Below, one piece after another: positions 12,232 through 12,504 of a DNA stretch of 15,429 bases. This DNA comes from a virus: IMG/VR virus record IMGVR_UViG_3300001477_000032, positions 1-15,429 of that record; one strand, 5' to 3'. A model generated the notes under the pieces. That model worked only from the letters and a program-made list of their open reading frames with translations. It had not been told where the DNA came from and ran no database searches. Position 1 is the stretch's first letter, and each line of letters begins with the position of its first letter. The position numbers and the translations under genes were made by a program.

Positions 12232-12504
12232 ATGAATCTAAAAGTTAGATTTAATAATCCAGTATTTATTGCTCAAATTATTTTGTCAATTATAACTCCA
12301 ATTTTATCTTATGCAGGATTAACACTTCAAGATTTAACAACTTGGACTTCTGTTAGCGATCTTCTACTAGGAGCATTAGGTAATCCTTATGTTCTTGGAT
12401 TAATTGTAGTTTCAGTTTGGTGTGCTTTAAATGATCCTACAACAGCAGGATTATCTGATAGTAAATTGGCGATGACGTACTAGAAACCTAAAAAAGATAT
12501 TTAA
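12232..12504 (+). CDS. holin (LL-H/phiLC3-Tuc2009-like family), reading through an in-frame TAG to a TAA at 12502
   Basis: Two hydrophobic helices (VFIAQIILSIITPILSYAG and YVLGLIVVSVWCALN) are followed by the family motif N-D-P-T-T-A-G-L-S-D-S. The track stops at TAG 12481. If TAG is sense, the frame continues x-K-P-K-K-D-I to a TAA stop. That gives the short basic C-terminal tail typical of holins. Confidence 0.75.

Follow-up and report, generated by a model that had tools for sequence, protein, structure and literature searches.

The stretch of DNA analysed here, referred to as the window, comprises 15,429 nucleotides of IMG/VR record IMGVR_UViG_3300001477_000032 and contains a holin gene of the Phage_holin_1 (phiLC3/LL-H) type on the plus strand at positions 12232 to 12504 (90 codons followed by TAA). 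Direct reading of the sequence placed a ribosome-binding site, GGAGG (12220 to 12224, plus strand), 7 nt 5' of the holin ATG at 12232 to 12234. The gene carries an in-frame TAG on the plus strand as codon 84 (12481 to 12483), and in the standard code the open reading frame would span 12232 to 12483 and encode 83 amino acids. After the TAG, the frame continues with AAA CCT AAA AAA GAT ATT and closes with TAA at 12502 to 12504 (12484 to 12504 in total, plus strand), specifying the residues K-P-K-K-D-I, the first three of which belong to a conserved Y-x-K-P-K motif. An earlier note on this DNA had described an LL-H/phiLC3-type holin that ends at TAG 12481 in the standard code and reaches a tail, x-K-P-K-K-D-I followed by TAA, only if TAG is sense. 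Reading of the frame agrees with this description, and the family assignment is borne out by a match to PF04531 (Phage_holin_1) over the full profile. With the TAG read through, residues 1 to 87 of the holin matched profile positions 1 to 82 of 82 with 83.3 bits (cutoff, 22 bits), and the 83-amino-acid form scored 75.4 bits and covered profile positions 1 to 78 only. The profile extends four positions beyond the TAG, and the tail contributes 7.9 bits to the match.

Hydropathy analysis divided the holin into an N-terminus (residues 1 to 9), a first transmembrane domain (approximately 10 to 28), a loop (29 to 44), a second transmembrane domain (approximately 45 to 65), and a hydrophilic C-terminal domain (66 to 90), with windows above 1.5 beginning at residues 7 to 18 and 44 to 54. 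The N-terminus carries a charge of +2, the loop −2, and the tail, written as EKPKKDI, +1. The protein therefore has the two helices and the charged C-terminus that are expected of a small membrane protein of the Phage_holin_1 family, and its C-terminus is predicted to be cytoplasmic. A single methionine stands at the start of the protein (MNLKVRF...), and no second in-frame start was found in the first codons. The 120 nearest homologues are mostly 88 to 94 amino acids long, with a few reaching 104 to 109.

The holin gene adjoins endolysin genes on the plus strand, and the same synteny was found in the related loci L001 to L008. The first of these genes, lysA, starts 62 nt downstream of the holin (12566 to 13252; open frame, 12554 to 13252) and encodes a protein of 228 amino acids with a PG_binding_1 domain and a C-terminal domain. 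It is followed by lysB (13268 to 15427; open frame, 13253 to 15427), which runs off the window and encodes an endolysin with GH73 glucosaminidase, Amidase_2, and PG_binding_1 domains. lysA duplicates the C-terminal half of lysB as a stand-alone gene, the shared PG_binding_1 and Cys/His domains being 57% identical; L008 and the P0013 lineage possess one long lysin only and no separate lysA. Two terminator-like hairpins on the plus strand bracket the holin gene. One lies directly upstream of the ribosome-binding site (12179 to 12212), and the other, with the stem GGACAGAG/CTCTGTCC and a T-run, is located between the holin TAA and lysA (12511 to 12546), its stem being conserved with variable loops in L001 to L008 and L012. 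This arrangement suggests that transcription of the holin gene is controlled separately or depends on antitermination.

Farther to the left, the window contains an accessory block of ten plus-strand genes (2909 to 12137) and, at its left end on the minus strand, the N-terminal 907 codons of a tape-measure gene encoding approximately 2,900 amino acids (2 to 2722; open frame, 2 to 2728). Reading TAG as a sense codon raised the open reading frame coverage from 0.71 to 0.99, fused the fragments downstream of the holin into the two lysins, and fused the minus-strand fragments at the left end into the tape measure. In total, 32 in-frame TAGs were counted in these late genes, namely, one in the holin, 3 in lysA (the first at codon 4), 12 in lysB (at codons 3, 8, 36 and beyond), and 16 in the tape measure. 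The claim of the earlier note that the neighbouring lysins require a sense TAG was thus confirmed, as both become single open reading frames. Over their 1,947 codons the late genes contain 32 TAG versus 98 GAA or GAG codons, so that TAG makes up about a quarter of the Glu-type codons. In the accessory block, for which the label "early" is an assumption, we found no in-frame TAG versus 254 GAA or GAG codons in 2,883 codons (Fisher P = 5 × 10−17 compared with the late genes), and every gene stops at TAA. TAG is a sense codon in the late genes, and its use is partitioned by gene class. Programmed local read-through of the type that yields the Q-beta A1 protein presupposes one leaky stop in a genome that otherwise follows the standard code and was ruled out, given the 32 in-frame TAGs in the four late genes of the window.

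We then considered whether the residues beyond codon 84 belong to the holin. All 120 of the closest database homologues extend past Y83 (...AMTY) and carry the Y-x-K-P-K tail, as do all 26 distinct holin genes recovered as DNA from related phage contigs. Holins of cultured standard-code phages show the same ending: 90 such records align past the position of the TAG, through residues 88 to 89, including the holin of Bacillus phage Mgbh1, which aligns over residues 1 to 89, and holins of Streptococcus, Enterococcus, Listeria, and Staphylococcus phages. Of the more than 230 sequences compared, none stops at the position of the TAG or otherwise represents a natural tail-less homologue. In relatives whose holin is 82% identical, KPKKDI is unchanged despite a synonymous difference (CCT or CCA), and five loci with TAG at codon 84 specify the same holin protein as L003, which has CAG. 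The terminator-like hairpin with its conserved stem, located directly after the TAA, likewise fits a gene end at that codon. Public databases list the holin as a 90-amino-acid product. On these alignments, the basic tail is evidently the normal, family-conserved C-terminus of the holin, and its conservation goes beyond chance. The comparison of tail presence and length that the earlier note had proposed as a check thus came out in favour of a genuine tail, and the pattern that would have spoken against it, homologues uniformly ending at the TAG, is the opposite of what we found.

It is exceedingly improbable that TAG 12481 is the true stop of the holin gene and that the codons for K-P-K-K-D-I are left over, untranslated, from an ancestral tail. 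Such a reading could point to the standard-code open reading frame, which terminates at this TAG, and to gene callers that end some related genes at TAG, as in entry P0051 (89 amino acids), compared with L013, in which the gene ends ...KPKGK-TAG-TAA. Against it, the six tail codons are open and their amino acid sequence has been kept across lineages despite synonymous change, no homologue lacks the tail, every accessory gene terminates at TAA, and TAG is demonstrably sense in lysA and lysB a few dozen bases downstream.

The earlier note had gone further and proposed that incomplete suppression at codon 84 would yield a tail-less and a tailed holin from one gene, acting as a holin/antiholin-like timing switch. 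Termination at this codon would indeed keep both helices and remove the last 7 residues. Of the four lysines in the C-terminal domain, three would be lost, and the charge of the domain would shift from 0 to −1. Partial suppression as a selected device, with the 83-amino-acid and 90-amino-acid forms serving as a timer, is also in keeping with the distribution of the TAG, which was found at codon 84 in four sublineages (the window and L001, L008, L023, and the P0013 group, consisting of L002, L004 to L007, and L012). Nine distinct holin genes have Glu at this position, 8 through TAG and one through GAG, although the lineages are not independent. Holins bear a charged C-terminal end, and truncation of the C-terminus altered the activity of another Gram-positive holin; that truncation abolished toxicity and made no timer (PMC9327680). 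Recoded stops in lysis genes have previously been proposed to control lysis timing by preventing premature lysis (10.1101/2021.08.26.457843), and the broader concept of recoded stops gating lysis genes is therefore already known.

The comparison of codon 84 across relatives does not support the proposed switch. The codon is GAT in nine distinct holin genes of the clade, GAG in L015, CAG in L003, CAA in L009 to L011, and AAT in one case, and L003 otherwise encodes the same holin as its TAG-bearing sisters. Most of the holins with GAT, GAG, CAG, or AAT at this position adjoin lysins carrying in-frame TAGs, which indicates that a TAG at codon 84 is dispensable. Retention of the TAG equals the background: each other lineage shares 6 or 7 of the 12 lysB TAGs of the window, as expected if the holin TAG is kept no more strictly than any other. 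The holin contains a single Glu-type codon, and in the late genes of the window TAG makes up approximately 25% of the codons of this type. The gene has no dual-start motif, and natural tail-less homologues are likewise missing from the more than 230 sequences. We therefore found no sign that the holin TAG is a selected switch, and a timer of this kind appears improbable. An 83-amino-acid by-product could possibly arise from competition with release factor at codon 84.

The residues found at holin position 84 in homologues include D, E, Q, N, and others, and a close relative has CAG; Glu and Gln are indistinguishable at the holin site itself. The position is mostly Asp in relatives, and an acidic residue would thus fit there. 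In the holin of L013, the terminal ...KPKGK-TAG-TAA stands where relatives end with ...KPKAKE or ...KPKPKE. The lysins and the tape measure give further indications of what TAG encodes. In lysB, codon 36 (13373 to 13375, plus strand) is a TAG that occupies the x in the motif GQMCL-x-TGYG. In alignments to PDB entries, this motif corresponds to AQAALETGWG of FlgJ (2zyc) and to AQAIVESGWG of 7qfu, the catalytic Glu motif of GH73. Column 36 is E in 119 of 120 homologues (52 to 66% identity), the remaining one having a gap, and the P0013 lineage has GAA at this codon. A TAG is found in the P0013 lineage at lysB position 82, the Glu of TPEYY, which by the numbering of the FlgJ chain is the predicted second catalytic Glu. 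The same 120 homologues place Glu at the TAG columns in most cases, with counts of E119 at column 36, E120 at column 82, E108 and D10 at column 60, E107 and D13 at column 222, and E104 and Q14 at column 3.

Column-wise log-odds computed in the manner of Codetta for 29 lysin TAG sites gave +38.1 for E, −26.9 for Q, and −36.0 for D, a profile indistinguishable from that of GAA in the same test (E, +37.0; Q, −25.8), in which 33 of 34 control codons were decoded correctly. When only columns with at least 70% conservation were considered, TAG was present in 13 Glu-column cells and 1 Asp-column cell and in 0 of 60 Gln-column cells (P = 4 × 10−5). When codons were aligned across lineages, the partner of TAG was GAA roughly twice as frequently as it was CAA or CAG. 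Decoding from database homologues of the tape measure was ambiguous (Q, 16.6 versus E, 15.2) and was rejected as confounded, given that the database renders TAG as Q in recoded relatives. For this reason, decoding was repeated with DNA-level alignments and conserved-column counts. With 21 tape-measure orthologues aligned at the DNA level, each containing 1 to 85 TAGs, 727 TAG cells gave +291.9 for E and −631.9 for Q, and all 55 control codons were decoded correctly; 19 TAG cells fell in Gln-conserved columns versus 99 in Glu-conserved columns. Considered per lineage, E scored above Q wherever there were at least 16 TAGs. L024, with only 5 TAGs, leans toward Q, its TAGs being located at Gln-type columns. 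The TAGs in the NrdD and RecJ-like genes of relatives lie at poorly conserved positions and were uninformative on decoding.

The comparative evidence argues strongly that TAG is predominantly glutamate in this clade, and we favour Glu as the most likely residue at holin codon 84. The reading established for other phages, TAG as Gln (genetic code 15), as in crAss-like, Lak, and phAss-1 phages, would make the holin residue Q84. It draws on the fact that all prior reports of TAG-recoded phages infer Gln (PMC9523058) and that databases translate the genes studied here with Q. It is also in line with the CAG of L003 where sister loci have TAG, with lysB positions 101 and 102, where the window has CAA-TAG and L008 has TAG-CAA, and with the Gln-leaning cells of the tape measure and L024 described above. 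Nevertheless, we regard Gln as unlikely, because it would replace the catalytic GH73 Glu and several invariant Glu residues, because in the columns with at least 70% conservation TAG was absent from the 60 Gln-column cells and present in 13 Glu-column cells, and because the log-odds gaps of approximately 65 and 924 nats favour Glu, with all or nearly all controls correct. TAG decoding could nonetheless be mixed or lineage specific.

It seems rather likely that a clade of uncultivated siphovirus-like phages of approximately 118 to 140 kb has reassigned TAG to Glu and not to Gln. Its members include IMGVR_UViG_3300021400_001206, IMGVR_UViG_3300021400_000126, IMGVR_UViG_3300037400_003961, IMGVR_UViG_3300032038_000025, and the source of the window. 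In the literature that we searched, no report of a stop-to-Glu code was found for phages or bacteria. Phage reassignments described there are only TAG to Gln and TGA to Trp (Borges et al., 10.1101/2021.08.26.457843), and the literature found also gives TGA to Gly, with code-25 hosts. A recoding of TAG to Glu appears to be the unexpected and most interesting outcome of this analysis, and if it is true, the published view of phages, with TAG to Gln and TGA to Trp only, needs widening.

We also searched for an agent that could decode TAG. The window contains no tRNA gene, and none was detected over approximately 91 kb of IMGVR_UViG_3300021400_001206, the closest complete relative (139,781 bp), from position 106,351 through the origin to approximately 57.5 kb. 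This relative is circular: in L043 the sequence runs on past the end of its contig and joins up with the contig start. No suppressor tRNA with a CUA anticodon was found in the 225 retrieved loci, and the parts examined yielded neither a release factor nor a synthetase. Relaxed ARAGORN searches returned only false positives, among them a "cta" hit in L172 that overlaps, in antisense orientation, the start of a gene with a ribosome-binding site, an ATG, and an in-frame TAG. In the related contig L207 (IMGVR_UViG_3300021431_000004, 130 kb), a small cluster at positions 10868 to 11469 consists of a tRNA-Leu(CAA) gene and two tRNA-like genes of atypical form; a CUA anticodon is present in none of them. 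In one tRNA-like gene, which contains a long insert, the stem measures 6 bp and the loop 8 nt, and the other is 68 nt long with a U1-A72 pair and an anticodon loop of only 3 nt; the cluster adjoins a gene for a 3D-domain protein. We infer that the decoding agent is a tRNA with a CUA anticodon. As a speculation, in hosts that lack GlnRS, such a tRNA might be charged by a nondiscriminating GluRS and not be converted by GatCAB.

Taken together, the window would derive from an uncultivated phage of approximately 120 to 140 kb in whose late genes TAG specifies an amino acid, and the accessory block remains compatible with the standard code. TAG-84 is an ordinary sense codon within a gene that ends at TAA 12502 to 12504 and encodes a 90-amino-acid holin with two predicted transmembrane helices. 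Its C-terminus would end in the Y-(D/E/Q)-K-P-K-K tail of the family, reading E-K-P-K-K-D-I if TAG is Glu. All three lysis proteins would then depend on the TAG-decoding state. The hard lock would lie in the endolysins, with TAG at lysB codons 3 and 8, at the catalytic Glu, and at codon 4 of lysA. Should release factor 1 of the host win at TAG-84, the result would be a tail-less by-product of 83 amino acids that keeps both helices, and we see no sign of a selected antiholin. As a whole, this explanation, with an ordinary sense codon in the holin, a normal tail, and TAG as Glu in the clade, appears very likely to us, resting as it does on sequence comparison. The recoded TAGs would probably also have a role in timing, and for lysis, the catalytic Glu and the first codons of the endolysins would represent a much harder lock than the near-terminal TAG of the holin. 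For the holin alone, the result is mostly corrective, in that the tail is the normal C-terminus of its family.

The proposed arrangement resembles that of the alternatively coded gut phages (crAss-like, Lak, Agate, and others), in which TAG likewise occurs in late and lysis genes, another set of genes remains readable in the standard code that the host presumably uses, and lysis proteins have been proposed to be incomplete before the code switch. The difference lies in the amino acid, since those phages read TAG as Gln and the TAG of the window clade matches Glu. In crAss-like phages, TAG as Gln was shown by proteomics, and in the others it was inferred (Borges et al., 10.1101/2021.08.26.457843; Peters et al., PMC9523058). 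The TAG-recoded phage phAss-1 ("Phassvirus," approximately 136 kb) is alike in genome size, in its very long tape measure, and in having TAG in hallmark genes. In the phAss-1 group, the tape measure comprises approximately 3,150 amino acids, the holin open reading frame contains an in-frame TAG in 2 of 3 genomes, and phAss-1 has three tRNA-Sup-CTA genes typed as Gln (Babkin et al., PMC10607447). In the window clade, by contrast, TAG is Glu-like and no suppressor tRNA was located in the parts examined. Membership of the window in the phAss-1 group was rejected, as no nucleotide or close holin similarity was found in the phage collection. That annotated collection contained no nucleotide-level relative of the window, and its holins were at most 64% identical; a scan of a genome collection returned a Halobacillus prophage (61% identity) as the sole match.

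As a holin, the protein is like other Phage_holin_1 holins of Gram-positive phages in its DPTT-G-SDS motif, its two helices, its Y-x-K-P-K tail, and its place upstream of the endolysin, and is unlike them in having a TAG codon for one residue of its tail region. The holin/antiholin pairs of phage lambda (S105/S107) and phage 21 (S68/S71) arise from dual start codons, and their products differ at the N-terminus. A two-form holin of the window would be alike in principle, with one gene giving two membrane proteins of different terminal charge, but it would have a single start, would differ at the C-terminus, and would rely on a reassigned codon being decoded incompletely. TAA and TAG are translated as Glu in the nuclear code of peritrich ciliates (NCBI table 30). 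That code is eukaryotic, nuclear, and genome wide, whereas in the window TAG to Glu would be confined to a subset of the genes of a bacterial virus. The clade could offer a concrete system for studying the means by which a virus makes a standard-code host read a new sense codon.

The reassignment would also have consequences for annotation. Standard-code gene callers truncate the holin and break up its lysins, and such truncation at TAG by other gene callers is seen in P0051 and in many tape-measure fragments of 350 to 1,000 amino acids. For P0001, P0013, and L001 to L007, the products stored in public protein collections have TAG as Q and differ from what table 11 would give for the underlying DNA. 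Such holin and lysin entries would, if TAG is Glu, be wrong at every TAG, active-site residues included, and annotation with table 15 would put Gln at hundreds of Glu positions per genome, catalytic residues among them.

The use of TAG varies among the relatives. Tape-measure orthologues of 2,400 to 3,000 amino acids contain up to 85 TAGs, and many have 45 to 85. In L024 (IMGVR_UViG_3300026522_000099), L029, L030, and L039, only 1 to 5 TAGs were observed in a tape measure of approximately 2,600 to 2,900 amino acids, and such TAG-poor members of the clade may represent an early or a different stage of recoding. TAGs were also observed outside structural and lysis genes of relatives (L104, 11819 to 14140; L071, 8700 to 10568; L043, 3963 to 5842). 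The TAG-bearing genes of relatives include those for an anaerobic ribonucleotide reductase (3 TAGs), a RecJ-like DHH protein (6 or 7 TAGs), a GIY-YIG protein (10 TAGs), and another enzyme (7 TAGs). The putative major capsid and decoration genes (L147, 284 to 1927) contain no TAG.

The accessory block of the window encodes a set of proteins resembling RNA repair functions, comprising an RNA ligase (9256 to 10488), an AAA_33 kinase (11116 to 11616), two metallophosphatases (phosphoesterases), and an RlaP-like nucleotidyltransferase. An SPFH/flotillin protein is also encoded there. Finally, an open reading frame at 6415 to 8916 specifies a protein of 833 amino acids that resembles the major vault protein, with MVP shoulder and repeat domains, which is unusual for a phage.
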